Shown here piece after piece: positions 11,160-63,940 of a stretch of 64,000 nucleotides of DNA; position 1 is the stretch's first letter, and each line of letters starts with the position of its first letter. A program made the position numbers and the translations under genes. The notes below the pieces were generated by a model. The model saw only the letters and a program-made list of their open reading frames with translations, searched no databases and was not told the origin of the DNA. Where the stretch lies: assembly GCF_058153355.1 (NCBI RefSeq), contig NZ_CM177019.1. One strand, given 5' to 3'.

Positions 11160-11297
11160 CGGGAAAGCCCCTCCCGAGGAAGGGGCCTTAAATAAGGAAA
11201 GGGTCATGATGAAGTGGATCATCATCGTGGTGCTCTTAGTCGTTAGCTACCCAGCTTACTAAGACTACCAGGGCGGGGGAAACCCCGCTCAACCCTC
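11160..11297 (-). ncRNA. sib: Predicted Sib-type antisense RNA (antitoxin) covering ibs copy 1; ends approximate
   Basis: Minus-strand promoter-like TTGACA (plus 11328-11333), 17-nt spacer, TATTTT (plus 11305-11310); minus-strand hairpin GCCCCTTCCTCGGGAGGGGC followed by a T-rich tract near 11165-11195 as terminator; transcript fully overlaps the ibs ORF. Confidence 0.45.
11206..11262 (+). CDS. ibs: Ibs-family type I toxin, 18 aa (MMKWIIIVVLLVVSYPAY), repeat copy 1
   Basis: Short hydrophobic ORF with an MMK start and PAY C-terminus, preceded by an AAGGAAAGGG Shine-Dalgarno-like sequence; matches the Ibs toxin pattern. Too short for the ORF track. Confidence 0.75.
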   Translation: MMKWIIIVVLLVVSYPAY

Positions 11298-11487
11298 ACT
11301 CCTGAAAATATGCCTTCACGGTCAGAATGTCAATCCGCAGGCTTTGCAGTCTGCGATCCTGCCAGCAAATATTCTTTGCGAGTCGTTACGCAATAATCAC
11401 AGATGAAACTATTTTATCTAAGCGTTAGCGATAGACTGCATTCAGGGCAAAAGGAGGTAGGCCGACGATTTCAGCGGGACGCTGAAA

Positions 11488-11625
11488 CGGGAAAGCCCCT
11501 CCCGAGGAAGGGGCCTTAAATAAGGAAAGGGTCATGATGAAGATACTCATCATCGTGGTGCTCTTAGTCATTAGCTTACCGGCTTACTAAGACTACCAGG
11601 GCGGGGGAAACCCCGCTCTACCCTC
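11488..11625 (-). ncRNA. sib: Predicted Sib-type antisense RNA covering ibs copy 2; ends approximate
   Basis: Same architecture as copy 1, shifted 328 bp; -10 element is TACTTT. Confidence 0.42.
11534..11590 (+). CDS. ibs: Ibs-family type I toxin, 18 aa (MMKILIIVVLLVISLPAY), repeat copy 2
   Basis: Same features as copy 1, exactly 328 bp downstream. Confidence 0.75.
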   Translation: MMKILIIVVLLVISLPAY

Positions 11626-11815
11626 ACTCCTGAAAGTATGCCTTCACAATCAGATTGTCAATCCGCAGGCTTTGTAGTCTGCGATCCTGCCAGCAAATAT
11701 TCTTTGCGAGACGTTACGCAATAATCACATGTGAAACTATTTTATCTGCAAGTTAGCGATAGACTGCTTGCATGGCGAAAGGAGGTAGGCCGCCGATTTC
11801 AGCGGGACGCTGAAA

Positions 11816-11953
11816 CGGGAAAGCCCCTCCCGAGGAAGGGGCCTTAAATAAGGAAAGGGTCATGATGAAGCTACTCATCATCGTGGTGCTCTTAGTTATT
11901 AGCTGGCCAGCTTACTAAGACTACCAGGGCGGGGGAAACCCCGCTCTACCCTC
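11816..11953 (-). ncRNA. sib: Predicted Sib-type antisense RNA covering ibs copy 3; ends approximate
   Basis: Same architecture; TTGACA retained, -10 degenerate (TAACTT), so expression is less certain. Confidence 0.38.
11862..11918 (+). CDS. ibs: Ibs-family type I toxin, 18 aa (MMKLLIIVVLLVISWPAY), repeat copy 3
   Basis: Same features as copy 1, 656 bp downstream. Confidence 0.75.
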   Translation: MMKLLIIVVLLVISWPAY

Positions 11954-12135
11954 ACTCCTGAAGTTATGTTACTCCACCCTTATTGTCAATCTGTAAGTCC
12001 ACGTTCTTGCGGGGCGAATAGCAAAACCCTCTGCGCTTATGGGCCGAATTCTGAAAGTTGCTTTGCCTGCTCTTATTTCATTATTGCAGTCGGTATGATA
12101 CCGGACCTCAATAATTCTCTAAGAAAGGATTTCTT

Positions 12136-27983: not shown

Positions 27984-28022
27984 CAGTGTGTTGGTAGCTA
28001 AAAAGCCAGGGGCGGTAGCGTG
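27984..28022 (+). promoter_or_regulatory. JUMPstart element with ops motif (GGCGGTAGCGTG) in the wza leader
   Basis: CAGTGTGTTGGTAGCTAAAAAGCCAGGGGCGGTAGCGTG, ~180 bp upstream of wza; ops sites recruit RfaH for antitermination of long polysaccharide operons. Confidence 0.78.
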
Positions 28023-42470: not shown

Positions 42471-42553
42471 GCGAAACCGCGGTGTAAATAACGACAAAAA
42501 TAAAATTGGCCGCTTCGGTCAGGGCCAACTATTGCCTGAAAAAGGGTAACGAC

Positions 42554-46949: not shown

Positions 46950-47255
46950 TCCGACAACGGTTGCCGGGTGCAGCGTAAAACGCCTTATCCGTCCTACGGT
47001 TCTGTGCTCGGGACCTGTAGGCCTGATAAGACGCGTCAGCGTCGCATCAGGCACTGAATGCCGGATGCGGCGTGAACGCCTTATCCGTCCTACGGTTCTG
47101 TGCTCGGGACCTGTAGGCCTGATAAGACGCGTCAGCGTCGCATCAGGCACTGAATGCCGGATGCGGCGTGAACGCCTTATCCGGCCTACGGTTCTGTGCT
47201 CGGGTCTTGTAGGCCTGATAAGACGCGCCAGCGTCGCATCAGGCAAAAAGCGGCA
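46950..47255. repeat. Tandem array of three ~97-bp REP/BIME units
   Basis: The block GCCGGATGCGGCGTGAACGCCTTATCCG(T/G)CCTACGGTTCTGTGCTCGGG...GTAGGCCTGATAAGACGCG(T/C)CAGCGTCGCATCAGGCA recurs three times. Confidence 0.85.
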
Positions 47256-49813: not shown

Positions 49814-51208
49814 ATGCCATTTAAAAAACTCTCCCGACGTACCTTCCTGACGGCAAGCTCCGCGCTTGCCTTCCTCCATACCCCTTTCGCCCGTGCACTT
49901 CCCGTCCGACAAAGCGTTAATATCAGTGACTACAATCCGCACGACTGGATCGCCTCATTTAAGCAGGCCTTCAGCGAAGGGCAAACGGTCGTCGTGCCTG
50001 CCGGATTTGTTTGTGACAACATTAATACCGGTATCTTCATCCCTGCCGGTAAAGCAATACGCATCCTCGGTAGCCTGCGCGGCAACGGCAAAGGGCGATT
50101 TGTCTTACAGGACGGCAGCCAGGTGACAGGGGAGAAGGGCGGCAGTATGCATAACATCACCCTGGATGTGCGTGGTTCTGACTGCACCATCAAAGGGCTG
50201 ACTATGAGCGGCTTTGGGCCGGTAACGCAGATTTACATCGGGGGAAAAAACAAACGGGTCATGCGTAACCTGACCATCGATAACCTCACTGTCAGCCACG
50301 CTAATTACGCCATTTTACGCCAGGGATTTCATAACCAGATTATCGGTGCCAACATCACCAATTGTAAGTTCAGTGACTTACAGGGCGACGCCATTGAATG
50401 GAATGTGGCGATTAACGACAGTGATATTTTGATATCTGACCATGTCATCGAGCGCATCAACTGTACCAACGGCAAAATCAACTGGGGCATCGGCATAGGT
50501 CTTGCGGGAAGCACTTATGATAATAATTACCCGGAAGACCAGGCAGTGAAAAACTTTGTCGTGGCGAATATCACGGGATCGGATTGTCGGCAGTTGATCC
50601 ATGTTGAAAATGGTAAACATTTTGTTATTCGTAATATCAAAGCCCGCAATATCACGCCGGATTTCAGTAAGAAAGCAGGTATTGATAACGCCACAGTCGC
50701 TATTTACGGTTGTGACAATTTCGTGATTGATAATATTGAAATGATTAATAGCGCCGGAATGTTAATCGGCTATGGGGTAATTAAAGGCAAATATCTCTCG
50801 ATACCGCAAAATTTCCGAGTGAATAATATTCAACTGGATAACACCCATCTTGCTTATAAATTGCGCGGCATCCAAATCTCCGCCGGGAATGCTCTCTCCT
50901 TTGTGGCACTGACTAACATTGAGATGAAGCGTGCGTCGCTGGAGTTACACAACAAACCGCAACATCTTTTTATGCGAAATATCAAGGTGATGCAGGAATC
51001 CTCAGTTGGACCCGCATTGAGCATGAACTTCGACATGCGCAAAGACGTTCGCGGCGTCTTTATGGCGAAAGAAGAAACACTGCTGTCTCTTGCAAATGTT
51101 CATGCGGTGAATGAAAGAGGGCAAAGCTCCGTCGATATCGACAGGATTAATCACCATATTGTTAATGTGGAAAAGATTAACTTTAGATTGCCGGAACGGT
51201 GGGAGTAG
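49814..51208 (+). CDS. wcaM: Colanic acid biosynthesis protein WcaM (Tat-type signal, beta-helix-like)
   Basis: 464-aa ORF with twin-arginine-like signal [15 protein letters not shown]; last gene of the colanic acid cluster. Confidence 0.88.
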
Positions 51209-51365
51209 ATTTGCGACCATTCATAAACTTACTGGATATAATGTTCTAAAAGATTATAATCCTCACACTAACTGTTAAAGCTGGGGCTGGGCAGCATTGA
51301 CTACTCAGGGAAGGTACTCATCTTTATCTTGTGTTTCTTACGTAACAACCAGACTAAAGTGATTT

Positions 51366-52361
51366 ATGAACGATAACGTTTTGCTCATAGGAGCTTCCGG
51401 ATTCGTAGGAACCCGACTACTTGAAACGGCAATTGCTGACTTTAATATCAAGAACCTGGACAAACAGCAGAGCCACTTTTATCCAGAAATCACACAGATT
51501 GGCGATGTTCGTGATCAACAGGCACTCGACCAGGCGTTAGCCGGTTTTGACACTGTTGTGCTACTGGCAGCGGAACACCGCGATGACGTCAGCCCTACTT
51601 CTCTCTATTATGATGTCAATGTTCAGGGTACCCGCAATGTGCTGGCGGCCATGGAAAAAAATGGCGTTAAAAATATCATCTTTACCAGTTCCGTTGCTGT
51701 TTATGGTTTGAACAAACACAACCCTGACGAAAACCATCCACACGACCCTTTCAACCACTACGGCAAAAGTAAGTGGCAGGCAGAGGAAGTGCTGCGTGAA
51801 TGGTATAACAAAGCACCAACAGAACGTTCATTAACCATCATCCGTCCTACCGTTATCTTCGGTGAACGCAACCGCGGTAACGTCTATAACTTGCTGAAAC
51901 AGATCGCTGGCGGCAAGTTTATGATGGTGGGCGCAGGGACTAACTATAAGTCCATGGCTTATGTTGGAAACATTGTTGAGTTTATCAAGTACAAACTGAA
52001 GAATGTTGCCGCAGGTTATGAGGTTTATAACTACGTTGATAAGCCAGACCTGAACATGAACCAGTTGGTTGCTGAAGTTGAACAAAGCCTGAACAAAAAG
52101 ATCCCTTCTATGCACTTGCCTTACCCACTAGGAATGCTGGGTGGATATTGCTTTGATATCCTGAGCAAAATTACGGGCAAAAAATACGCTGTCAGCTCAG
52201 TGCGCGTGAAAAAATTCTGCGCAACAACACAGTTTGACGCAACGAAAGTGCATTCTTCAGGTTTTGTGGCACCGTATACGCTGTCGCAAGGTCTGGATCG
52301 AACTCTGCAGTATGAATTCGTCCATGCCAAAAAAGACGACATAACGTTTGTTTCTGAGTAA
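51366..52361 (+). CDS. gne: NAD-dependent sugar nucleotide epimerase, probably UDP-GlcNAc 4-epimerase (Gne-like)
   Basis: 331-aa ORF; Rossmann motif LIGASGFVG; sits between wcaM and galF, where gne lies in several E. coli serogroups with GalNAc-containing O antigens. Family call is solid; substrate is inferred. Confidence 0.6.
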   Translation: MNDNVLLIGASGFVGTRLLETAIADFNIKNLDKQQSHFYPEITQIGDVRDQQALDQALAGFDTVVLLAAEHRDDVSPTSLYYDVNVQGTRNVLAAMEKNGVKNIIFTSSVAVYGLNKHNPDENHPHDPFNHYGKSKWQAEEVLREWYNKAPTERSLTIIRPTVIFGERNRGNVYNLLKQIAGGKFMMVGAGTNYKSMAYVGNIVEFIKYKLKNVAAGYEVYNYVDKPDLNMNQLVAEVEQSLNKKIPSMHLPYPLGMLGGYCFDILSKITGKKYAVSSVRVKKFCATTQFDATKVHSSGFVAPYTLSQGLDRTLQYEFVHAKKDDITFVSE

Positions 52362-52603
52362 TGCAGGCGAGTCAGAGAAAAAAGGACCAGGTTGGACTAC
52401 GATTATTCGGAAAGAGGTACTGATTAAATTATCAGTATGTGGATTTCCGAGTAATCCGAGTAACCCAGATGCTGATGGTGTGTAGTGTTATCGTAAGGTT
52501 TAATCAAAGTTATGCGGAACTAAGCTTTGCTATATAGCCATAACGCTTGGCTAACCTATGGCAATAATTTACGCACTATCAGCCACTTAGAGGTAGGAAA
52601 ATA

Positions 52604-53497
52604 ATGACGAATTTAAAAGCAGTTATACCGGTAGCAGGTCTTGGGATGCATATGTTGCCTGCCACTAAGGCGATTCCCAAAGAGATGCTACCGATCGTCG
52701 ACAAGCCAATGATTCAGTACATTGTTGACGAGATTGTGGCTGCAGGGATCAAAGAAATCCTCCTGGTAACTCACGCGTCCAAGAACGCGGTCGAAAACCA
52801 CTTCGACACCTCTTATGAATTAGAATCTCTCCTTGAGCAGCGCGTGAAGCGTCAACTGTTGGCGGAAGTACAATCTATCTGTCCGCCGGGCGTGACCATT
52901 ATGAACGTGCGTCAGGGTGAACCTTTAGGTTTAGGCCACTCCATCTTATGTGCGCGACCTGCCATTGGTGACAACCCATTTATCGTGGTACTGCCAGACG
53001 TAGTGATCGACGACGCCAGCGCCGACCCGCTGCGCTACAACCTTGCTGCCATGATTGCGCGCTTCAACGAAACGGGCCGTAGCCAGGTGCTGGCAAAACG
53101 TATGCCGGGTGACCTCTCTGAATACTCCGTCATCCAGACCAAAGAACCGCTGGACCGTGAAGGTAAAGTCAGCCGCATTGTTGAATTTATCGAAAAACCG
53201 GATCAGCCGCAGACGCTGGACTCAGACATCATGGCCGTAGGTCGCTATGTGCTTTCTGCCGATATTTGGCCGGAACTAGAACGCACTCAGCCTGGTGCAT
53301 GGGGGCGTATTCAGCTGACTGATGCTATTGCCGAACTGGCGAAAAAACAGTCCGTTGATGCCATGCTGATGACTGGAGACAGCTACGACTGCGGTAAAAA
53401 AATGGGCTATATGCAGGCGTTTGTGAAGTACGGACTGCGTAACCTGAAAGAAGGGGCGAAGTTCCGCAAAGGTATTGAGAGGTTGTTGAATGATTAA
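52604..53497 (+). CDS. galF: UTP-glucose-1-phosphate uridylyltransferase regulatory paralog GalF
   Basis: 297-aa ORF; nucleotidyltransferase N-terminus [26 protein letters not shown]; canonical 5' flank of the O-antigen locus. Confidence 0.92.
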
Positions 53498-53746
53498 AAA
53501 CATGAACAAATATAACGGTAAATAAGAGAAATTGTAACGGCAGTGAGGATTTGCGGCGAAGCTCAAACGTGGCGAATATCCCTGTCGTTATTTATTAATA
53601 AATCATCGTACTAACAATGGAATAAAAAAGTGCCTTGTTTTAAGTTTTACAGGATATTCCTTGTTTCTGGAGGAGATTGATAAGACAATCAGCATCTGAA
53701 TTTATCAGAACTTGTGTGTCTTGCTGATTACATTGTTATATTCATG

Positions 53747-53785
53747 TAGTGTACTGGTAGCTGTGGAGCCAGGGGCGGTAGCGTG
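53747..53785 (+). promoter_or_regulatory. JUMPstart element with ops motif (GGCGGTAGCGTG at 53774-53785) heading the O-antigen cluster
   Basis: TAGTGTACTGGTAGCTGTGGAGCCAGGGGCGGTAGCGTG, ~60 bp upstream of wzx; near-identical core to the copy upstream of wza. Confidence 0.78.
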
Positions 53786-53842
53786 CATTAATATTCACAA
53801 TATATTCTTTTAAATGTAAGCAGAATTAATCGAACCTAAATA

Positions 53843-55357
53843 ATGTCACGTAACAAAATAATCATAAAGAATACTATGTTTTTGGCAACAAGAACCTTAG
53901 TTTCTTTAAGTGTTTCATTTTACACAACAAGAATAGTTATACAACAGTTGGGGGCGGCAGACTATGGCTTATTTAATATCATTTATGGAGTTGTAACATT
54001 TTTTACATTCGTAGTCACCGCGATGAATGATTCTGTACAGCGTTATATTGCAATAGGTGTTGGTTCACAAAAAATATCGGTTATTAGAGATGCTGTAAAA
54101 AATAGTATGTTTATATTTGTTATATCTGCTTTCATATTGGCAGTATGTCTTCTTTTGGCAAGGGGGGTGATCATACATAATATTTTAAATATACCTAAAG
54201 ATTCTATTGAAAATGCAAGTGTGTTATATTTGGTTGCAGTATTTTCAATAACCATACTTATAATTCAGACGCCACTTAATGCGATGGTGTTAGCATACGA
54301 GAAAATGTCATTTTACGCATACATGATGATATTTGAAATGGTAGCTAAAATGAGTATGGCTTTGTTACTAACTTTACTGGAAAAAGATAAGGTCATTGTA
54401 TATTCAATACTTTTAGGTTCTATTTCTTTTTTTAACTTGTTGGTTTATTTATGCTACTGCTTGATATGTTTTAAAAAATCAATGTTTGGTGGGAGAATAA
54501 AATTTAGAGTGCTGAAAGAAATTTCAACTTTTTCATTTTGGAATATATTTGGTAATTTCTCTTACATGTGCAGAGTTCAGGGAGTGAACATTGTAATTAA
54601 TATGTTTTACGCTATAGCCGTGAATGCAGCATATGCGATTTCGATTACTGTTTTAAATGCAATTAATACACTTACGCAATCATTAATTACAGCATTAAGG
54701 CCTCAAATATTTAAATCATATGGCGAATGTGATTTAAAAAGATATAATCATCTAGTTCTCTTTGGTTCAAAATATACATTTTCAATATTGTTTCTGTTAA
54801 GTAGCCCTGTAATTCTATGTGCGGATGAGTTGTTAAAGATATGGCTTGATATTGTACCAGATTATACAGTTGAATTTGTGAGGTTGGTCATTGTTGTGGC
54901 TTTTATTGATAGTTTTTCATATAGCATGATTGCTGGTATTCAGGCTACGGGTAGGATTAAAACATATCAACTAGTTGTTAGTTTAATTGTCCTAATTAAT
55001 TTGCCGTTAACCTTTATTTTGTTTAAGGCAGGAAATAATGTTTTAAGTATGTTTTATCCATTTATTGTTACTGCCATTATCAATCAAGGTTTAAGGTTGT
55101 ATTTTATCTATATCAATGCAGGTTTTGATTATAAGAAGTATTTCACTGTTGTGATCTATCCTTGCTTGTTAGCTGTATGCTTATCGTTAGTGACAGATAT
55201 TTCAATTAAAAAAATGCTTCCATTTAACAGTGTTATTGATGTTTTAATTGTGTGTATTTTTATTTTTTCATTCAATACAATAATTTTTTATTGGGTTGTA
55301 GTTTCTAAAAAGGAAAAAAAATGGTTATTAGAAACCCTGAAAAGAAAAGTGAAATAA
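53843..55357 (+). CDS. wzx: O-antigen flippase Wzx (polysaccharide biosynthesis / MOP family)
   Basis: 504-aa AT-rich ORF, almost entirely hydrophobic with ~12 predicted TM helices; first gene after galF and JUMPstart. Confidence 0.7.
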   Translation: MSRNKIIIKNTMFLATRTLVSLSVSFYTTRIVIQQLGAADYGLFNIIYGVVTFFTFVVTAMNDSVQRYIAIGVGSQKISVIRDAVKNSMFIFVISAFILAVCLLLARGVIIHNILNIPKDSIENASVLYLVAVFSITILIIQTPLNAMVLAYEKMSFYAYMMIFEMVAKMSMALLLTLLEKDKVIVYSILLGSISFFNLLVYLCYCLICFKKSMFGGRIKFRVLKEISTFSFWNIFGNFSYMCRVQGVNIVINMFYAIAVNAAYAISITVLNAINTLTQSLITALRPQIFKSYGECDLKRYNHLVLFGSKYTFSILFLLSSPVILCADELLKIWLDIVPDYTVEFVRLVIVVAFIDSFSYSMIAGIQATGRIKTYQLVVSLIVLINLPLTFILFKAGNNVLSMFYPFIVTAIINQGLRLYFIYINAGFDYKKYFTVVIYPCLLAVCLSLVTDISIKKMLPFNSVIDVLIVCIFIFSFNTIIFYWVVVSKKEKKWLLETLKRKVK

Positions 55358-56703
55358 CAATAAAAGATGTTATAGACAATGAACTCTGTACTGGTTGTGG
55401 AGTTTGTATTTCGGAAGATAGTAGCAAAACCTCCTTTATGAAATGGAATTCTGAAGGTTTTTATGAGCCATGTTTCTCTCCTGTATCAACATTATTCAAT
55501 ATGCAGCGTGTTTGTCCCTTTAACTTAAGTAGGGATACATTAGTGAATGAGGATGAACTTGCGCATGAGTTTTTTGATGGTAAGGGATATTTAGATTCTG
55601 AGGTTGGGTTTTATAAAAAAATATATGTGGGTTATTCTAAACATTTTAGAGAGACTTCATCCTCCGGTGGTATAGCTACATATGTATTTGAACAACTTCT
55701 TAGACGTAAGTATGTTGATGCTCTATTTATAGTTAGGGAGCTTGGTGGTTCATATGGATATCAAGTCTTCGATAATCCAGAACATATTAAGGATATGTCT
55801 AAAACAAGATATTATCCTGTAACGCTAGAAAAGTTATTTGATAATATTTATAAGCTTAATGGTAGAGTGGCCGTTTCAGGAGTGGCATGTTTTATTAAAG
55901 CCATTAGGCTCAAACAACATTACCATCCAGAACTGAAAGAGAAAATACCATTCCTTGTTGGTATAATTTGTGGAGGACTCAAAAGTCGATATTACACTGA
56001 TTATTTATCACAGTCTGCTGGTTGTGTCAGTGAGTACCAAAATGCTGAGTATCGAGTGAAAAAGAAAGATAGTCATGCTCTTGACTATCGTTTCACATGT
56101 GTTGAGAAATCAAATAATATAATTCATTCTGTTGATATGCAAAGAATGGGGGATATGTGGGGTTCAGGGCTATTTAAGGCAAACGCATGTGACTATTGTG
56201 ATGATGTTACAACCGAACTCGCAGACATATCATTGGGTGATGCCTGGATTTCGCCATACAATATGGATGGAGCTGGTAATAATGTAGTTGTATGTCGCTC
56301 CACCACAGCTCATGAAATTATTTTATCTGGGATTGAGAAAAAAGACTTAGAATTAACGGAACTCGAATTAGAGCAGTTGAAATTGTCACAACAAGGAAGT
56401 TTTAACCACAGGCATAAAGGATTATTATATAGAATAAAAAATGCAGAGAAAAATAATCGCTTAGTGCCTGTTAAGAGGAAAAGATTCTTACGCTCTATAT
56501 CTTTTTTATTAAAGTTAATTCAAAAACAACGATCAGTTACAAGGAGAAAAAGCATAGAGATATGGATGGAAACTCAAAATTCAGCAACTTTCGATAAGAA
56601 AATGAAGGGATATTTATTCACGTTGCGTTGGTTAACAGTGGTCAATAGGAAATTAAGTCGGATGTTCAAGATTGTTTCTCTAAATAGAATGGGTAAAAAA
56701 TGA
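55321..56703 (+). CDS. Fe-S protein resembling coenzyme F420 hydrogenase/dehydrogenase beta subunit (FrhB-like); probable partner of the adjacent pyruvyl transferase
   Basis: 460-aa ORF with ferredoxin-like CTGCGVC motif near the N-terminus and further Cys residues (CDYCDD); overlaps the wzx end by 37 bp, so the true start may lie downstream. Confidence 0.5.
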   Translation: MVIRNPEKKSEITIKDVIDNELCTGCGVCISEDSSKTSFMKWNSEGFYEPCFSPVSTLFNMQRVCPFNLSRDTLVNEDELAHEFFDGKGYLDSEVGFYKKIYVGYSKHFRETSSSGGIATYVFEQLLRRKYVDALFIVRELGGSYGYQVFDNPEHIKDMSKTRYYPVTLEKLFDNIYKLNGRVAVSGVACFIKAIRLKQHYHPELKEKIPFLVGIICGGLKSRYYTDYLSQSAGCVSEYQNAEYRVKKKDSHALDYRFTCVEKSNNIIHSVDMQRMGDMWGSGLFKANACDYCDDVTTELADISLGDAWISPYNMDGAGNNVVVCRSTTAHEIILSGIEKKDLELTELELEQLKLSQQGSFNHRHKGLLYRIKNAEKNNRLVPVKRKRFLRSISFLLKLIQKQRSVTRRKSIEIWMETQNSATFDKKMKGYLFTLRWLTVVNRKLSRMFKIVSLNRMGKK

Positions 56704-57836
56704 AAGTTGCAATATTAACTCAACCATTACATACGAATTATGGTGGCACATTACAAGCCTATGCATTACAAAAAGTCTTGATTAATTTGGGACATGAACC
56801 AGAGACTATTAATTATAGGTCGAAAATTAAGAGGCCACTATTTATCCGTGTTGTGTTGTCAAAAATTAAAAGGATAGTATTATGCCGAAAAATCACATTT
56901 GATTTTACAACACAAGATAGAATTAATATTAGGAAGCATCATCAATCTTTCATTGATACAAGATTAAACTATTCAGAGGAGATTAACGGTACTGAGGGGT
57001 TGAGAGATTATATTTTAAAAAATAATTACGGTGCTGTAATAATAGGTAGTGATCAGACATGGAGACCAATATATTCGCCTAGAATAGATTCATTTTTTCT
57101 CGATTTTTTAAGTGATGTAAACGATATAAAAAAAATGGCATATGCAGCATCTTTTGGTACTGATAAATGGGAGTTCACGGAGTCACAAACTAATTTATTT
57201 AAATTGTTACTTTCAAAATTTGACTATGTTTCAGTTAGAGAGTCCTCAGGAGTCAAATTATGTAGTGAAAAATTTGGTTTGAAAGCAGAGTTGGTTTTAG
57301 ATCCGACATTGCTATTGACATTCGAAGATTATACTCATTTATTAGACAATGACTATATTAATCTTCATAAGGGAAAGGTGTTTAGTTATGTACTTGATGA
57401 GAATTACGACAAAAAAAACTTTATAGACACAGTAGCAAGTACTCTCCGCACAACGTCATTTTATACTTACCCTAAAAAAATCACTAAAGATGAATATGTG
57501 ATTAGAAATTATTCCGAGTATGAATATCCGCCAATAGAATATTGGATTTCTTCGTTTAAGGCCGCTGAATTTATTGTAACAGATTCATTTCATGGAACAG
57601 TATTTTCTATTATTTTTAACAAACCCTTCATCGCCATTGCAAATGAAGAGAGAGGAAAGGCTAGATTTACGTCACTATTGGAAATGTTTGGTCTTGAAAG
57701 ACGACTTGTGAGTAATTTAGATGATGTTGATTTAAAGCTTGTAAATGAAAAAATTAACTATGGCCCCATAAATGAAAAAATTGCTTATTTTAGAGAAGAG
57801 TGCCTTAAAAAGTTGCAGTTAATGCTAATAAAATAA
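56700..57836 (+). CDS. Polysaccharide pyruvyl transferase (WcaK/CsaB family)
   Basis: 378-aa ORF; N-terminus MKVAILTQPLHTNYGGTLQAYAL parallels the WcaK N-terminus MKLLILGNHTCGNRGDSAIL in this same window; 4-bp overlap with the upstream gene. Confidence 0.55.
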   Translation: MKVAILTQPLHTNYGGTLQAYALQKVLINLGHEPETINYRSKIKRPLFIRVVLSKIKRIVLCRKITFDFTTQDRINIRKHHQSFIDTRLNYSEEINGTEGLRDYILKNNYGAVIIGSDQTWRPIYSPRIDSFFLDFLSDVNDIKKMAYAASFGTDKWEFTESQTNLFKLLLSKFDYVSVRESSGVKLCSEKFGLKAELVLDPTLLLTFEDYTHLLDNDYINLHKGKVFSYVLDENYDKKNFIDTVASTLRTTSFYTYPKKITKDEYVIRNYSEYEYPPIEYWISSFKAAEFIVTDSFHGTVFSIIFNKPFIAIANEERGKARFTSLLEMFGLERRLVSNLDDVDLKLVNEKINYGPINEKIAYFREECLKKLQLMLIK

Positions 57837-57882
57837 TCAGATTATGTATGTCTCTCTACAATTAAAATATGAATGTTGATCG

Positions 57883-58887
57883 ATGAAGAATTGTAAAGTA
57901 TCTGTAATTATTCCGGTCTATAATGCGGAAAAATATATACAACGTTGTATTTTAAGCTTATTAAAGCAGACATTAGATGATGTTGAAATTATCATCATTG
58001 ATGATGGTTCTACTGATAATTCACTTTCTATAATAAAAGAAACTGTTGCATTGCATACTGCTAGTAGAGCTCGCCAAAAGAGAATCAATATAATCTCTCG
58101 AGAAAACAAAGGAGTTGCCTATACACGAAGTCAGGGATTGAGACTTTCGCAGGGGGAATTTATCATTCATTTTGATAGTGATGATTGGGCAAAATCCAAT
58201 ATGCTGGAGGAAATGTATAAGACAATTGTTTCCAATAATGCAGACATGGTTATATGCGATTATTTTTTAGTGAAGAATAATAAAGAAATACTTATAAAAC
58301 AGAGAGTGGAGTATGAGCCAAAGAAATGTATTAGATATCTACTGACTGGTGAGCTAGAAGGATTTACATGGAACAAACTAATTAGAAAAAAATATATCGA
58401 TAAAAATAAAATTGATTTTGTTAATAAAATTACTTATATGGAGGATTTTTTGTTCATATTAAGTGTGTTACTACACAATCCTAAAATTATTTTTCAGGAT
58501 TGTGCATATTATTATTATCAAAAAAGCAATCCTAAATCTCTAACTAGCCATGCTAGTGTGGATAGGCTTTCTGAAATGATTAAAGCCGTAAGTGAAATAG
58601 AAAAGAAGATAAATAAATATAATTTACAAAAGTATCTGAATAACGAGTTTCAATTGTTTAAGTTAAAACAAAAAATTTGGTTTATATCTATAAGTAAGTT
58701 AAATGTTAATGATAATGTATGGAATCTCTTTCCTGAAACAAATCCATTTATATCAAAGGTAAATGTGCTTTTTTATTATAAAATAGTGCTTTTTCTTGAT
58801 AGTATTAAACTGCGTTTTTTTTCAAATAAGATCATTTATCTCATTGGATTGGTGCAGGCTTTATTACAAGAAAGGAAAGAGAAGTGA
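57883..58887 (+). CDS. Glycosyltransferase family 2
   Basis: 334-aa ORF; VSVIIPVYNAEKYI, IIIIDDGSTDNS, later DSDD (DXD). Confidence 0.72.
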   Translation: MKNCKVSVIIPVYNAEKYIQRCILSLLKQTLDDVEIIIIDDGSTDNSLSIIKETVALHTASRARQKRINIISRENKGVAYTRSQGLRLSQGEFIIHFDSDDWAKSNMLEEMYKTIVSNNADMVICDYFLVKNNKEILIKQRVEYEPKKCIRYLLTGELEGFTWNKLIRKKYIDKNKIDFVNKITYMEDFLFILSVLLHNPKIIFQDCAYYYYQKSNPKSLTSHASVDRLSEMIKAVSEIEKKINKYNLQKYLNNEFQLFKLKQKIWFISISKLNVNDNVWNLFPETNPFISKVNVLFYYKIVLFLDSIKLRFFSNKIIYLIGLVQALLQERKEK

Positions 58888-59672
58888 TACCAAAAATAAT
58901 TCATTACTGCTGGTTCGGTCGCTCTCCATTGTCGGAATTAACAAAGCAGTGCATTGCAAGCTGGGAGAAATATTGTCCTGAATATAAAATCATAAGATGG
59001 GATGAAAATAATGTCGATTTGAATTCTTGTTCTTTTGTTAGACAAGCTTATAAAGAAAAAAAATGGGCGTTCGTTTCTGATTATGTAAGGCTTAAAGTGG
59101 TTAATGAATATGGCGGTATCTATCTTGATACAGATGTTGAATTAATAAAGCCATTAGATGATTTGTTAATATATCCTGCATATATAGGCTTTGAAATTAA
59201 CAAGGAATGGTATGTAAATTCTGGTTTGGGGTTCGGTTCTGTTAATAATAATCCGGTTTTAGAATCATTAATTATGGAGTATGAAAATATTAATTTTGTA
59301 AATGAGGATGGGACTCTAAATATAACGCCGTGCCCCATAAGAGAAACAAAAGCATTAACAAAAATAGGTTTAATTCCTGATGGTCAATGTCAATCTTTTG
59401 ATAATATAGTGATTTTTTCTGCAGATTATTTTTGTCCTGTATCTATAACAGGTGAGAGAAATTTTTCTGATAAAACATATTCAATACATCATTACGATGC
59501 TAGTTGGTTTTCTGAGCAAAAGAGAAAAGGCCTGCAACGTAAAAAGAGATTTATAAAACTATTCGGCAACCTAATAGGCACATATATTAATAAACCTTTT
59601 ATTTTTGTAGATGAATGTCGCGAGTTCGGATTAGTTAAAGCAATCAAGAATATGCGTTCCAATTTTCCTTAA
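58884..59672 (+). CDS. Glycosyltransferase with DXD sugar-binding region (Gly_transf_sug / Och1-like family)
   Basis: 262-aa ORF; N-terminus IPKIIHYCWFGRSPL, then YLDTDVELIKPLDD; characteristic of this small retaining glycosyltransferase family. Confidence 0.65.
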   Translation: MIPKIIHYCWFGRSPLSELTKQCIASWEKYCPEYKIIRWDENNVDLNSCSFVRQAYKEKKWAFVSDYVRLKVVNEYGGIYLDTDVELIKPLDDLLIYPAYIGFEINKEWYVNSGLGFGSVNNNPVLESLIMEYENINFVNEDGTLNITPCPIRETKALTKIGLIPDGQCQSFDNIVIFSADYFCPVSITGERNFSDKTYSIHHYDASWFSEQKRKGLQRKKRFIKLFGNLIGTYINKPFIFVDECREFGLVKAIKNMRSNFP

Positions 59673-59745
59673 TTTTTAGTGTTAAGGAATAAGTTTCGTT
59701 AAAATACTTTATTCATTTAATTAATAAAGGTTTAATGGTGATTAG

Positions 59746-60849
59746 ATGTACTTTCTTTTGTTCTTCTCAATATTTTATTTTGTATACGTAATCTTAATAG
59801 GAACATTATGTCATAACTATAAAGCCCTTTTGATTTTTTCACTAATCCCTCTGACAATAGTGTCAGGTATAAGATATAATGTCGGCTTTGATTTTATGTC
59901 ATATGTTGATTACTTCAATCAACTCAAATATTCAAATGATATATATCTAGATTCTACCTTTAAGTATATAAGCTACTTTACCTATTATATAGGAGGTAAC
60001 GAACAGATTTTGTTTCTGATATATGCGGTTTTTTATTCGGTTGCACTTTATTTTTTAATAAAACTGGTATTGGAAAATTATATAACGGAAATAAATAATT
60101 TTTATACTATTGGACTTGTGTTATCATTTTATTCGTTTTATTTTTTATTATCATTTAATCAAATTAGGGCTGTATTATCAGCTCTAATACTATGTTATGG
60201 GCTATTAAAAAATAAAATAGATTTTTCTTTTATAATAACAATTACATTAAGTATTCTTTTTCACTCTGCAGCAATGTTCATTTTACCTCTTTATTTTGTC
60301 CTAAGAAAAATAAATGTAACAGTTCTGTTGGTGATATTCCCTTTTTTGGTTGTTGCTTCATTCTTTAATATTTTTTCAGATATTGTGAGATTCATTCTGA
60401 CATTGCTAAATAGTCGTTTTTTAACATATTTTAACTCTGAATATTTTGTTCCAAGGACGGGAATGGAAAAAATGTATAGTATGATCTCAATGATTATTGT
60501 TTTGGGAATGGTTGTTTGTTTGTCTAAATTATTACCTAAAAAGTTTGATTTAATGATAAAGTTTGTTATTCTTTTTGTTCTACTTAGAGCGATGTCAATT
60601 GATATATTGATTTTTGCTAGGTTTAGTGATTTTCTTAAACCAATGGCTATAATTCTTATATTTACCGCTGTTTATTTTTCTTCGAATAAAGTGCGACCTA
60701 GAATTATCCTTCCTTTTTATTTAATTATGACATTGTTTCTCTGTATTTTTAATATAATAATCGGATCGAATATAACTAAGGGGAACTATTATACTTATGG
60801 TTATAACATTTGCTTTTTTGGCAATAAATGTATAGATAAATTTTATTAG
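59746..60849 (+). CDS. wzy: Candidate O-antigen polymerase Wzy (EpsG-like polytopic membrane protein)
   Basis: 367-aa, extremely AT-rich, ~10 predicted TM segments with no soluble domain; placement among the glycosyltransferases is typical of wzy. Assignment is by architecture only. Confidence 0.5.
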   Translation: MYFLLFFSIFYFVYVILIGTLCHNYKALLIFSLIPLTIVSGIRYNVGFDFMSYVDYFNQLKYSNDIYLDSTFKYISYFTYYIGGNEQILFLIYAVFYSVALYFLIKLVLENYITEINNFYTIGLVLSFYSFYFLLSFNQIRAVLSALILCYGLLKNKIDFSFIITITLSILFHSAAMFILPLYFVLRKINVTVLLVIFPFLVVASFFNIFSDIVRFILTLLNSRFLTYFNSEYFVPRTGMEKMYSMISMIIVLGMVVCLSKLLPKKFDLMIKFVILFVLLRAMSIDILIFARFSDFLKPMAIILIFTAVYFSSNKVRPRIILPFYLIMTLFLCIFNIIIGSNITKGNYYTYGYNICFFGNKCIDKFY

Positions 60850-60859
60850 TAATTGTCAT

Positions 60860-61927
60860 TTGATACTTCTGGTATTTATGGAAAAATATATGAATAACTT
60901 TTCTTGTAAAGAACCCCCTTCATTTATTGAAAATAAAATTATATTATCAATTATTCTTCCTGTATATAACGTATCAGAGTATTTAATTGAGTGCCTAAAC
61001 AGTTTGCTGTTAGACGTTCATGAACGTTATCTTAATAGATGTGAAGTAATTGTGGTTGATGATGGTTCAACTGATAATTCATTTGAATTAATGAGAGAGT
61101 ATTCTTTGAAATATCCTGAATCTATTAAGATTTATTCGAAATTCAATGGTGGTCTCTCAGATGCAAGAAACTATGGATTATTAAAATCTTCAGGTAAATA
61201 TATTTCTTTTGTTGATTCAGATGATGTTGTTAATAGAGGTTTTATAAAGGAAATCATCAATTTCATTGATGCCTATGATTTTGATATATTGTCATTTGAC
61301 TTCATGAAGTTTTTTAATAATAATGATGCTCTTATTCTTTCACAAATAGATGAATTCTCCAAAATGGCAGAAAGAGTAGATTCGGAGTTCTACAAGTCCA
61401 AGCCTGTTTTTGCTTGGAATAAAGTTTATCGACGTTCTCTTTTCGACAATGAAGTATTTCCTAAGGGGTGGTATTATGAAGATGTTGCATTAATTCCGTT
61501 ATTATTAGATAGAGCAAAAGTTTTATACCATATTAATAGCGTTTGTTATTTTTATAGACAGAGACAAGGAGCAATCACTTTTTTTTATGACAATAAATAT
61601 CTTGATATTTTAAAAGGAGTGTCTTTTTTATATGACAGGTCACAATCTTCATTCATTAAAACGATAATTATAAATCAGTTTTTTACTTTAACCTTACTAT
61701 CTTTAAGATTGCCGACTGATAATTATTTCATGAATATGAGGGGGATTATTGATACCTATTGTGAAAAATTTGACTTGGATTCCTTTGAGCCTAAACTAAT
61801 ATTAAAACACATTCCTTTTTTATTGCTTAAAAAATTGAAGTCGCTGTGTGTTTATCCACTGTATTTATTTAAACCTGCAGTTTTTTTACATAAACAAATT
61901 AAACATTTTAGAGGAAAACTAAAGTGA
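60860..61927 (+). CDS. Glycosyltransferase family 2 (start codon uncertain)
   Basis: 355-aa ORF; ILSIILPVYNVSEYL, VIVVDDGSTDNS, FVDSDD. The true start may be the internal ATG at MNNFSC. Confidence 0.7.
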   Translation: MILLVFMEKYMNNFSCKEPPSFIENKIILSIILPVYNVSEYLIECLNSLLLDVHERYLNRCEVIVVDDGSTDNSFELMREYSLKYPESIKIYSKFNGGLSDARNYGLLKSSGKYISFVDSDDVVNRGFIKEIINFIDAYDFDILSFDFMKFFNNNDALILSQIDEFSKMAERVDSEFYKSKPVFAWNKVYRRSLFDNEVFPKGWYYEDVALIPLLLDRAKVLYHINSVCYFYRQRQGAITFFYDNKYLDILKGVSFLYDRSQSSFIKTIIINQFFTLTLLSLRLPTDNYFMNMRGIIDTYCEKFDLDSFEPKLILKHIPFLLLKKLKSLCVYPLYLFKPAVFLHKQIKHFRGKLK

Positions 61928-63033
61928 AATATGATTATATAATTATAGGTAGCGGTCTTTTTGGGAGTGTGTTTGCACATGAATTAGGGAAAATGAAAAA
62001 AAAGGTCAAGGTTATTGAGCGTCGTGATCATGTTGGTGGTAATGTATATTGTGAGAATATTGAAGGAATTAATGTTCATAAATATGGCGCACATATATTC
62101 CATACTAACGATAAAGAAATATGGGATTATGTAAATCAATTTGTAGAGTTTAATAGATATACAAATTCACCATTAGCTTTTTCAAAAGGTAAAATTTATA
62201 ATTTACCTTTTAACATGAATACCTTTAATCAACTCTGGGGGGCTATTACTCCTCAACATGCGAAAGAAATTATTAAAAAGCAAAGCGGTGAAATAAGTGG
62301 AAATAAACCAAGGAATCTTGAAGAGCAAGCTATTTCTTTGGTGGGACGAGATATTTATAATTGTTTGATTAAGGAGTACACTGAGAAACAATGGGGACGA
62401 CCTTGCACTGAATTGCCATCATTTATTATAAAACGACTCCCTGTTAGGTTTACATACGATAATAACTATTTTAATGACCAGTATCAAGGAATACCAGTCG
62501 GTGGTTACAATAAATTAATCGATGCATTATTAAATGGTATTGAAGTTCAAACATGCACTGACTATTTTGAAGAGAAGAAATATTGGGATTCTATTGCAAA
62601 GAAAATTATTTATACAGGGCCTATTGATAAGTTTTATTGCTATAAATTTGGAGCTTTGGATTATCGATCATTAAAATTTGAGCATGAATTACTGAATGTC
62701 GATAATTTTCAAGGGAATGCTGTTGTAAATTATATAGACAAAAAATTCCCATTCACTCGTATAATAGAACATAAATTTTTTGAATTTGGTGAACAGCATA
62801 ATACTCTCATTACTCGAGAGTACCCAAAAGAATTCGAAGAAGGCGATGAGTATTACTATCCTGTCAATGATGAAAAAAATATGCAAATCTATAAAATGTA
62901 TTATAATCTTTCTAAACAGGAAAGTAATGTGATTTTTGGTGGACGTCTTGCGGAATATAAATATTATGACATGCATCAAGTTATCAAATCAGCTTTAAAT
63001 GCATTCCGAAAAGAGGTACGTTTAGGTGAATAA
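61924..63033 (+). CDS. glf: UDP-galactopyranose mutase
   Basis: 369-aa ORF; FAD-binding YDYIIIGSGLFGSVFA, then KYGAHIFHTNDK...GGRLAEYKYYDMHQVI; very similar to the E. coli K-12 Glf sequence as I remember it. Confidence 0.85.
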   Translation: MKYDYIIIGSGLFGSVFAHELGKMKKKVKVIERRDHVGGNVYCENIEGINVHKYGAHIFHTNDKEIWDYVNQFVEFNRYTNSPLAFSKGKIYNLPFNMNTFNQLWGAITPQHAKEIIKKQSGEISGNKPRNLEEQAISLVGRDIYNCLIKEYTEKQWGRPCTELPSFIIKRLPVRFTYDNNYFNDQYQGIPVGGYNKLIDALLNGIEVQTCTDYFEEKKYWDSIAKKIIYTGPIDKFYCYKFGALDYRSLKFEHELLNVDNFQGNAVVNYIDKKFPFTRIIEHKFFEFGEQHNTLITREYPKEFEEGDEYYYPVNDEKNMQIYKMYYNLSKQESNVIFGGRLAEYKYYDMHQVIKSALNAFRKEVRLGE

Positions 63034-63940
63034 AGAAGTAATCGCAGTTATTGTAACCTATAATAGAAAAGCATTATTGCTGAAAGTTATAGATGCTGTT
63101 ATTAACCAAAGTTATCCACTAAAAAAAATATTGATAATAGATAATAATAGTACTGATGGTACGGAGATGTTTATTTCAAATAGGCTCTCTGACGTGGTGA
63201 AGTATAAAAATACGGGGGATAATTTAGGGGGGGCTGGCGGGTTTTATAGAGGATTCATAGAGGCGGAAAAATATGGCTATGATTATCTTTGGTTAATGGA
63301 CGATGATTTTATGCCTACAGTGAATTGTCTTGAAATATTAATATCAAATAGCCCTGATGGTATTGTCCAACCTGTTAGATATAACTTGGATGAAACTTGT
63401 GCAGAGCTTTCTCCATTAACTTATGATTTATCTAACCCATTTAAGTTAAACCCTAAAGGTACACCATTAAAAAATTACTTAAATACAATTGGTAATAAAT
63501 CTGCGAAGGTAGATATTGAAGCTATTCCATTTGAAGGTCCATTGATTTCACGAAAGGTTGTTGAAAAAATAGGCTATCCAGAGCCTAAGTTTTTTATTTT
63601 TTGTGATGACATTGAATACGCTATTAAAGCTAAAAGAAAGGGGATTCCCATCCAGTGCAATCTTAAAGCCAAGGCATACCGCCTTTTGGTCAACAATCAA
63701 GGTAATGATCTTCTTTCCTGGAAAGGATATTTTATGCTTCGAAATCTTTTCTACCTGCATAAAACGTATGGGACCAATTTCCTTGTTAGACAAAAACCTA
63801 TCGTATTGGGATTAGGATATGCATTGTCGTGTGTATTGAAATGCAATTTTTCTCAACTTCCCGTTATATGGCGTGCTTTTTGGGATTCATCTACGTTAAG
63901 AAATACCGAAAAATTCAGGCCCGAAATGAGAAGTAAATAA
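63026..63940 (+). CDS. Glycosyltransferase family 2, plausibly a galactofuranosyltransferase
   Basis: 304-aa ORF; VIAVIVTYNRKALL, IIDNNSTDGT, LMDDDF; sits directly after glf. Acceptor and donor specificity are inferred from context only. Confidence 0.62.
   Translation: MNKEVIAVIVTYNRKALLLKVIDAVINQSYPLKKILIIDNNSTDGTEMFISNRLSDVVKYKNTGDNLGGAGGFYRGFIEAEKYGYDYLWLMDDDFMPTVNCLEILISNSPDGIVQPVRYNLDETCAELSPLTYDLSNPFKLNPKGTPLKNYLNTIGNKSAKVDIEAIPFEGPLISRKVVEKIGYPEPKFFIFCDDIEYAIKAKRKGIPIQCNLKAKAYRLLVNNQGNDLLSWKGYFMLRNLFYLHKTYGTNFLVRQKPIVLGLGYALSCVLKCNFSQLPVIWRAFWDSSTLRNTEKFRPEMRSK

Follow-up and report, generated by a model that had tools for sequence, protein, structure and literature searches.

Assignment of the epimerase gene between wcaM and galF as gnu, the probable source of the initiating GalNAc of an O124-type O unit

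The wcaM-galF interval and the adjoining O-antigen cluster

We analysed a 64,000-nt stretch of contig NZ_CM177019.1 (assembly GCF_058153355.1), referred to here in its full length as the window, in which an open reading frame of 331 codons plus stop lies between wcaM and galF. The initial annotation described this ORF as an NAD-dependent epimerase gene, and its coordinates, its Rossmann motif and both of its flanks (51209-51365, 157 bp; 52362-52603, 242 bp) were confirmed by the ORF listing and a Pfam search. The features discussed below are as follows.

27984-28022, + strand: second JUMPstart, at the head of the colanic acid operon (Rfam)
49814-51208, + strand: wcaM, last gene of the colanic acid cluster and upstream neighbour (ORF, RefSeq)
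51223-52586, no strand assigned: presence/absence block of 1,364 bp, comprising gnu, its leader and most of the gnu-galF spacer (K-12 comparison)
51233-51260, + strand: candidate sigma-70 promoter of gnu, TGGATA-16 nt-TATAAT (consensus scan, 10/12 matches; cross-genus conservation)
51366-52361, + strand: gnu coding sequence, 331 aa and stop (ORF, identity to ECs_2847, RefSeq product name, motifs, AlphaFold model)
52401-52456, + strand: conserved stem-loop, about 40 nt downstream of gnu (folding, inverted repeat, covariation)
52604-53497, + strand: galF, downstream neighbour (ORF, RefSeq)
53747-53785, + strand: JUMPstart element, start of the O-antigen operon (Rfam RF01707, 54.7 bits, E = 9.3e-10)
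53843-63940, + strand: O124-type O-antigen cluster (ORFs, Pfam, RefSeq names in strain VL7S7)
56700-57836: intact pyruvyl-transferase-family gene (genome comparison)

The ORF starts with ATG and its translation opens with MNDNVLLIGASGFVGTRLL (MNDNVLLIGASGFVG). Its product matches PF01370 (NAD-dependent epimerase/dehydratase) with E = 8.5e-31, and its RefSeq name and motifs fit an undecaprenyl-pyrophosphate-GlcNAc (UndPP-GlcNAc) 4-epimerase of the extended short-chain dehydrogenase/reductase (SDR) type. The motif LIGASGFVG occupies residues 7-15, with GxxGxxG at 9-15, and D32 is also marked. S109, Y132 and K136 align with S124, Y149 and K153 of GalE, and across 46 homologues G9-G15, S108/S109, Y132 and K136 are invariant or nearly so. 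The protein is identical over all 331 residues to ECs_2847 of O157 Sakai, and the same sequence, WP_000999466.1, is that of O55:H7 and of strain VL7S7. At 37141.8 Da, the mass computed for it agrees with that listed for Z3206 (37141 Da) in a study of the O157 proteome, where Z3206 was observed and showed enrichment in insoluble fractions of high density (PMC3210124). The exact sequence is found on more than 1000 contigs, and a megablast search of 5426 complete E. coli genomes placed the locus in 1323 of them, about a quarter; with the O157 orthologue seen in the proteome, the gene is therefore not a chance ORF. The RefSeq product name among those 1323 genomes is N-acetyl-alpha-D-glucosaminyl-diphospho-ditrans,octacis-undecaprenol 4-epimerase, and Gnu is the name used in most sources; the older Sakai record still labels ECs_2847 as "gne, UDP-galactose 4-epimerase". 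The identity of the gene, its context and the conservation of its catalytic residues are thus established here. Three antisense ORFs of 65-94 aa within gnu were considered and rejected as unsupported.

The two JUMPstart elements head the colanic acid and O-antigen operons, and gnu and galF are situated between these operons. The O-antigen cluster contains nine ORFs in the order wzx, FrhB-like gene, pyruvyl-transferase-family gene, GT2, GT32, wzy, GT2, glf and GT2, and Pfam analysis of these nine ORFs found neither an epimerase nor an initiating transferase. The window is 99.7% identical without gaps over 27.8 kb to strain VL7S7, whose cluster is annotated as O124/O164-family; this cluster is rare, being present in 5/5426 complete E. 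coli genomes. A 1-bp deletion splits the pyruvyl-transferase gene in three of these five genomes, whereas the window has it intact. Since O164 has been attributed to a frameshift in wfeP (PMC7685785), we infer an O124-type genotype for the window. The O-unit structure was accordingly taken, by cluster type, from the literature on O124/O164: the O124 unit has a Galp-Galf-GalpNAc main chain with a GlcLA-Glc side chain and contains no GlcNAc (PMC7685785). GalNAc is the sole N-acetylhexosamine of this unit and must therefore be its WecA-derived first sugar.

Some further observations were made in the window. The 3' end of wcaM (50700-51260) is 99.8% identical to that of VL7S7 and about 96-97% identical to that of most E. 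coli, and the GC content drops from about 55% to about 42% inside wcaM, from about 50300 onward; the tract of recombination by which the O-antigen region arrived may reach into wcaM. Three tandem Sib antitoxin RNA genes lie on the minus strand at 11191-11333, 11519-11661 and 11847-11989 (RF00113, 136-140 bits each). At this locus K-12 has two copies, sibA and sibB, and the strain may thus carry an extra Sib/Ibs copy. Two naRNA4/REP325-type units (RF02564) are found on the minus strand of the wzxC-wcaK spacer at 47020-47090 and 47116-47186, a pair that also appears as a self-match of the window shifted by 96 bp. An algC RNA motif was detected by Rfam on the plus strand of the cpsB-cpsG spacer (42500-42549).

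The gnu block, its flanking signals and its homologues

K-12 was expected to have no gene at this position, and this is the case: K-12 MG1655 and CFT073 have only a 174-bp spacer between wcaM and galF. K-12 and the window are homologous up to 51222, which is 14 bp past the end of wcaM, and again from 52587, which leaves 17 bp to the galF start codon. Thus gnu is carried on a 1,364-bp block (51223-52586, 43.8% GC) that replaces 142 bp of K-12, and those 142 bp gave no BLAST match to the block at a word size of 7. In gnu-less genomes the matches to the wcaM end likewise stop at 51222.

The flanks had been taken as a sign of independent promoter control of the gene. For the upstream flank this is plausible. 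A consensus scan of 51000-54000 returned seven promoter-like sites against 5.1 expected, which is not above chance, and one of these candidates places a -10 box at 51255-51260, some 105 nt ahead of the gnu start codon. To compare this site across species, gnu loci were collected by one degenerate-motif scan of representative genomes and 200 bp upstream of each was aligned. In the 13 enterobacterial loci listed, from about ten genera, the box is TATAAT in 11 and TATACT in two, and the bases around it vary widely. Conservation of the box within variable surroundings makes a promoter of gnu's own plausible, and by this comparison the gene would be transcribed from near 51233-51260 with a leader of about 100 nt. 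The upstream spacer (51209-51365) showed no unusual folding (z = +0.5). A motif in the leader, CTCAGGGAAG (51304-51313), is kept in nine of the 13 aligned loci, again with variable surroundings. The downstream flank, by contrast, says little about the control of gnu; what it contains is a conserved hairpin and the sequence leading up to galF.

The 242-nt spacer between gnu and galF has a folding energy of -75.3 kcal/mol (z = -4.5 against shuffled sequences). The two arms of its hairpin, 52401-52413 and 52444-52456, enclose a variable loop of about 30 nt, and the stem core, TCGGAAA...TTTCCGA, is kept in 10 loci from other enterobacterial genera or species. Over these 10 loci the hairpin has 12 pairs with 92.5% of cells paired, and three of the 12 pairs are changed on both sides. 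Its covariation score of 0.32 compares with 0.18 in shuffled alignments, none of which reached 0.32 in 500 trials, and every slid control also scored below the hairpin. G-U pairs occur on the plus strand, which fits an RNA made in the direction of gnu and galF. The hairpin is not followed by a U-run and is therefore not a classical intrinsic terminator; the consensus scan of 51000-54000 likewise found no terminator-like hairpin after wcaM or gnu, and neither flank of gnu gave a match in Rfam. The K-12 spacer aligns convincingly only with the 3' part, adjoining galF, and we accordingly make no claim of a hairpin older than gnu.

Some 30 nt ahead of the galF start codon (window 52565-52590), K-12 has CTATAAT and other genera have CTATACT, whereas gnu-positive E. 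coli have TTACGCA. With this -10 box replaced, galF may rely on transcription through gnu, and we speculate that in gnu-positive E. coli it could be transcribed from the gnu promoter.

The motif scan for gnu homologues gave at least 120 loci; it used a single 10-residue motif and the set is biased accordingly. Among the matches listed, about 13 enterobacterial loci show the wcaM-gnu-galF synteny with 82-98% protein identity, in Citrobacter, Enterobacter, Trabulsiella, Pseudescherichia, Cedecea, Siccibacter and Buttiauxella. Most of the other matches listed are from Bacteroidota (53-77% identity, at least about 100 genomes), including Marinifilum, Saccharicrinis, Prolixibacteraceae, Rikenella, Alistipes, Muribaculaceae, Bacteroides and Sphingobacterium, with a few from other phyla; the closer homologues, at 60-77%, occur in many Bacteroidota. 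Homologues outside the enterobacteria (example loci: L044, 1301-2284; L033, 6245-7228; L114, 619-1602) lie in polysaccharide clusters, and the upstream neighbour was a GT2 gene in all five loci examined. For comparison, the Gnu proteins of E. coli and Y. pseudotuberculosis are only about 50% identical (PMC3682973). In a rough neighbour-joining tree of the motif-biased set, drawn without support values, the enterobacterial Gnu proteins form one clade nested among those of Bacteroidota, which hints at an old transfer of gnu between phyla.

Taken together, these surroundings would describe a gnu-galF unit that is co-transcribed, with the hairpin as an intercistronic RNA stabiliser or processing site, and a gnu gene acquired long ago across phyla. 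We offer this picture tentatively and consider it rather unlikely to hold as a whole.

Assignment as Gnu and its proposed role

The main question is which 4-epimerase the gene encodes. The galE-like gene found shortly before the O157 cluster had at first been named gne (PMC3682973). [quoted passage not shown] Cunneen, Liu, Wang and Reeves applied gnu to the clade D genes and kept gne for the GalE-like clade A (PMC3682973), and this division of labour has been restated since (PMC7685785; PMC9680116). In a survey of 115 serogroups and Yersinia, the presence of gnu tracks GalNAc as the first sugar; presence or absence was as expected in 104 of the 115 serogroups, and for both O124 and O164 Table S2 lists one main-chain GalNAc with the entries "need gnu", "gnu present and correct" and "gne absent and correct" (PMC3682973). 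We concluded that the ORF is gnu, encoding GlcNAc-PP-undecaprenol 4-epimerase (EC 5.1.3.26), with a probability of about 0.93. The substrate specificity in this assignment is that which PMC3682973 and later papers report for the identical protein.

In the pathway that we propose, WecA, encoded elsewhere in the genome, would form UndPP-GlcNAc on the cytoplasmic side of the inner membrane. Gnu, presumably with tightly held NAD, would by analogy with GalE use Tyr132, Lys136 and Ser109 to oxidise the lipid-linked GlcNAc at C4, and reduction of the resulting 4-keto intermediate from the opposite face would yield UndPP-GalNAc. [quoted passage not shown] The chemistry is very probably the transient 4-keto mechanism of GalE, as judged from the aligned catalytic residues and the NDP-sugar epimerase fold. 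An AlphaFold model built on the homologue alignment (pLDDT 90.3, pTM 0.89) has NDP-sugar 4-epimerases and dehydratases as its nearest solved folds in Foldseek (TM 0.70-0.76, about 20% identity). A PDB sequence search together with Foldseek found no close solved structure, the best relatives being about 20% identical; structures this distant confirm the fold and cannot settle the substrate.

The same fold and catalytic residues would also suit a soluble UDP-GlcNAc 4-epimerase, Gne, that supplies UDP-GalNAc to WecA or to a glycosyltransferase; UDP-GlcNAc 4-epimerases are found at TM 0.76 to the model, the gene correlates with GalNAc in O units (PMC3682973), and older annotations of the identical O157 gene read gne or UDP-galactose 4-epimerase. 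The gnu-type gene of O157 was reportedly first published, in 2002, as that of a UDP-GlcNAc epimerase. The sequence comparisons go against such an enzyme: Gnu is 30% identical to K-12 GalE over 299 aa (E = 8e-19) and 27% identical over 161 aa to the epimerase in the O6 cluster of CFT073, counted as gne in PMC3682973, whereas these two are 49% identical to each other over their full length. The GalE model TIGR01179 scored 71.4 bits on Gnu, below its cut-off of 262.3; as no NCBIfam model reached its cut-off in the scan, family scans alone would leave Gnu a generic SDR epimerase. E. coli O86 requires both kinds of gene, the upstream one for its first GalNAc and the in-cluster one for its second (PMC3682973), and the two types therefore do not replace each other. 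The identical protein is reported to be inactive on UDP-GlcNAc and to act on UndPP-GlcNAc (PMC3682973; PMC7685785; PMC9680116), and these published assays largely refute a Gne function, which we consider very improbable. The proposed name gne (UDP-GlcNAc 4-epimerase) is accordingly out of date; the suggested comparison with Z3206 and GalE did place the gene with the O157 protein and apart from GalE-type enzymes, but that O157 protein is itself now Gnu.

An SDR with another chemistry (4-keto-sugar reductase, dehydratase, or sterol/hopanoid-type dehydrogenase) that adjoins the O-antigen cluster by chance is more improbable still. The top sub-threshold families are of this kind (HpnA, a hopanoid-associated sugar epimerase; LegB dehydratase; OleD reductases; 3-beta-HSD), the sterol dehydrogenase NSDHL is among the best PDB sequence matches, and a reductase falls within clade C of the published tree (PMC3682973). 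All of these family matches, however, are far under their curated cut-offs, the biochemistry reported for the identical protein is 4-epimerisation (PMC3682973), and presence of the gene follows GalNAc as first sugar in the survey cited above. Least probable of all is a gnu that this strain does not use and that came along as a passenger when the O-antigen locus recombined: the survey has 10 cases of gnu or gne present though unpredicted (PMC3682973), so that presence of gnu alone is no proof of use, and gnu is on a swappable block, but the reading frame is undamaged, its product matches the active O157 protein in every residue, and the O124/O164 unit needs GalNAc first with no other route in the cluster, for which reason a pseudogene or hitch-hiker was rejected.

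With the gene assigned as gnu, the expected link with GalNAc in the O unit was borne out by an O124/O164-type cluster with one main-chain GalNAc, and a more exact prediction becomes possible: where GalNAc or a related sugar had been expected at any place in the unit, GalNAc is now predicted to initiate it. An O124-type unit in which GalNAc is the only possible WecA-derived sugar is exactly the situation that requires Gnu. The name Gnu, unlike Gne, implies a synthesis started by WecA in which the first, lipid-linked sugar is GalNAc, and this fixes the biological repeat unit and the polymerisation linkage of the O124-type antigen. In glycoengineering, Gnu could serve to build glycans beginning with GalNAc. 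Beyond the naming, the finding is routine annotation, ordinary for a strain with a GalNAc-initiated O unit; Gnu and its occurrence in O124/O164 are already known in full, down to the serogroup, and the hairpin, the altered galF -10 box and the relationship to Bacteroidota are the only possibly new material here.

Comparison with known 4-epimerases

Gnu shares with the Gne/GalE enzymes of clade A the extended SDR fold, the GxxGxxG motif, the Ser/Tyr/Lys catalytic residues and probably the 4-keto epimerisation chemistry. It differs from them in its substrate, which is reported to be a lipid-linked sugar and not a nucleotide sugar, and in gene position: gnu is outside the O-antigen operon, upstream of galF and JUMPstart, whereas true Gne genes are inside the clusters. 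Gnu falls outside clade A, with the GalE model unreached, the gene outside the O-antigen cluster and the single GalNAc being the first sugar.

The clade B enzymes GnaB, WbpP and WbgU are, like Gnu, SDR 4-epimerases of N-acetylhexosamine derivatives, and WbgU (3lu1) is among the structural neighbours of the Gnu model. The genes of this clade (UDP-GlcNAcA 4-epimerases) are always paired with a WbpO/GnaA dehydrogenase gene (PMC3682973). In contrast, gnu adjoins wcaM and galF, with no WbpO/GnaA gene adjacent or in the cluster, and the O124 unit, unlike clade B polysaccharides, is without GalNAcA (PMC7685785).

The closest system is Gnu of O157:H7 (Z3206/ECs_2847, clade D). It has the identical protein in the same position between wcaM and galF, spacer DNA that is 98.6% identical to that of the window, and the same role in an O unit starting with GalNAc. 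Only the downstream O-antigen cluster differs, being O124-type in the window and O157 in the reference system.
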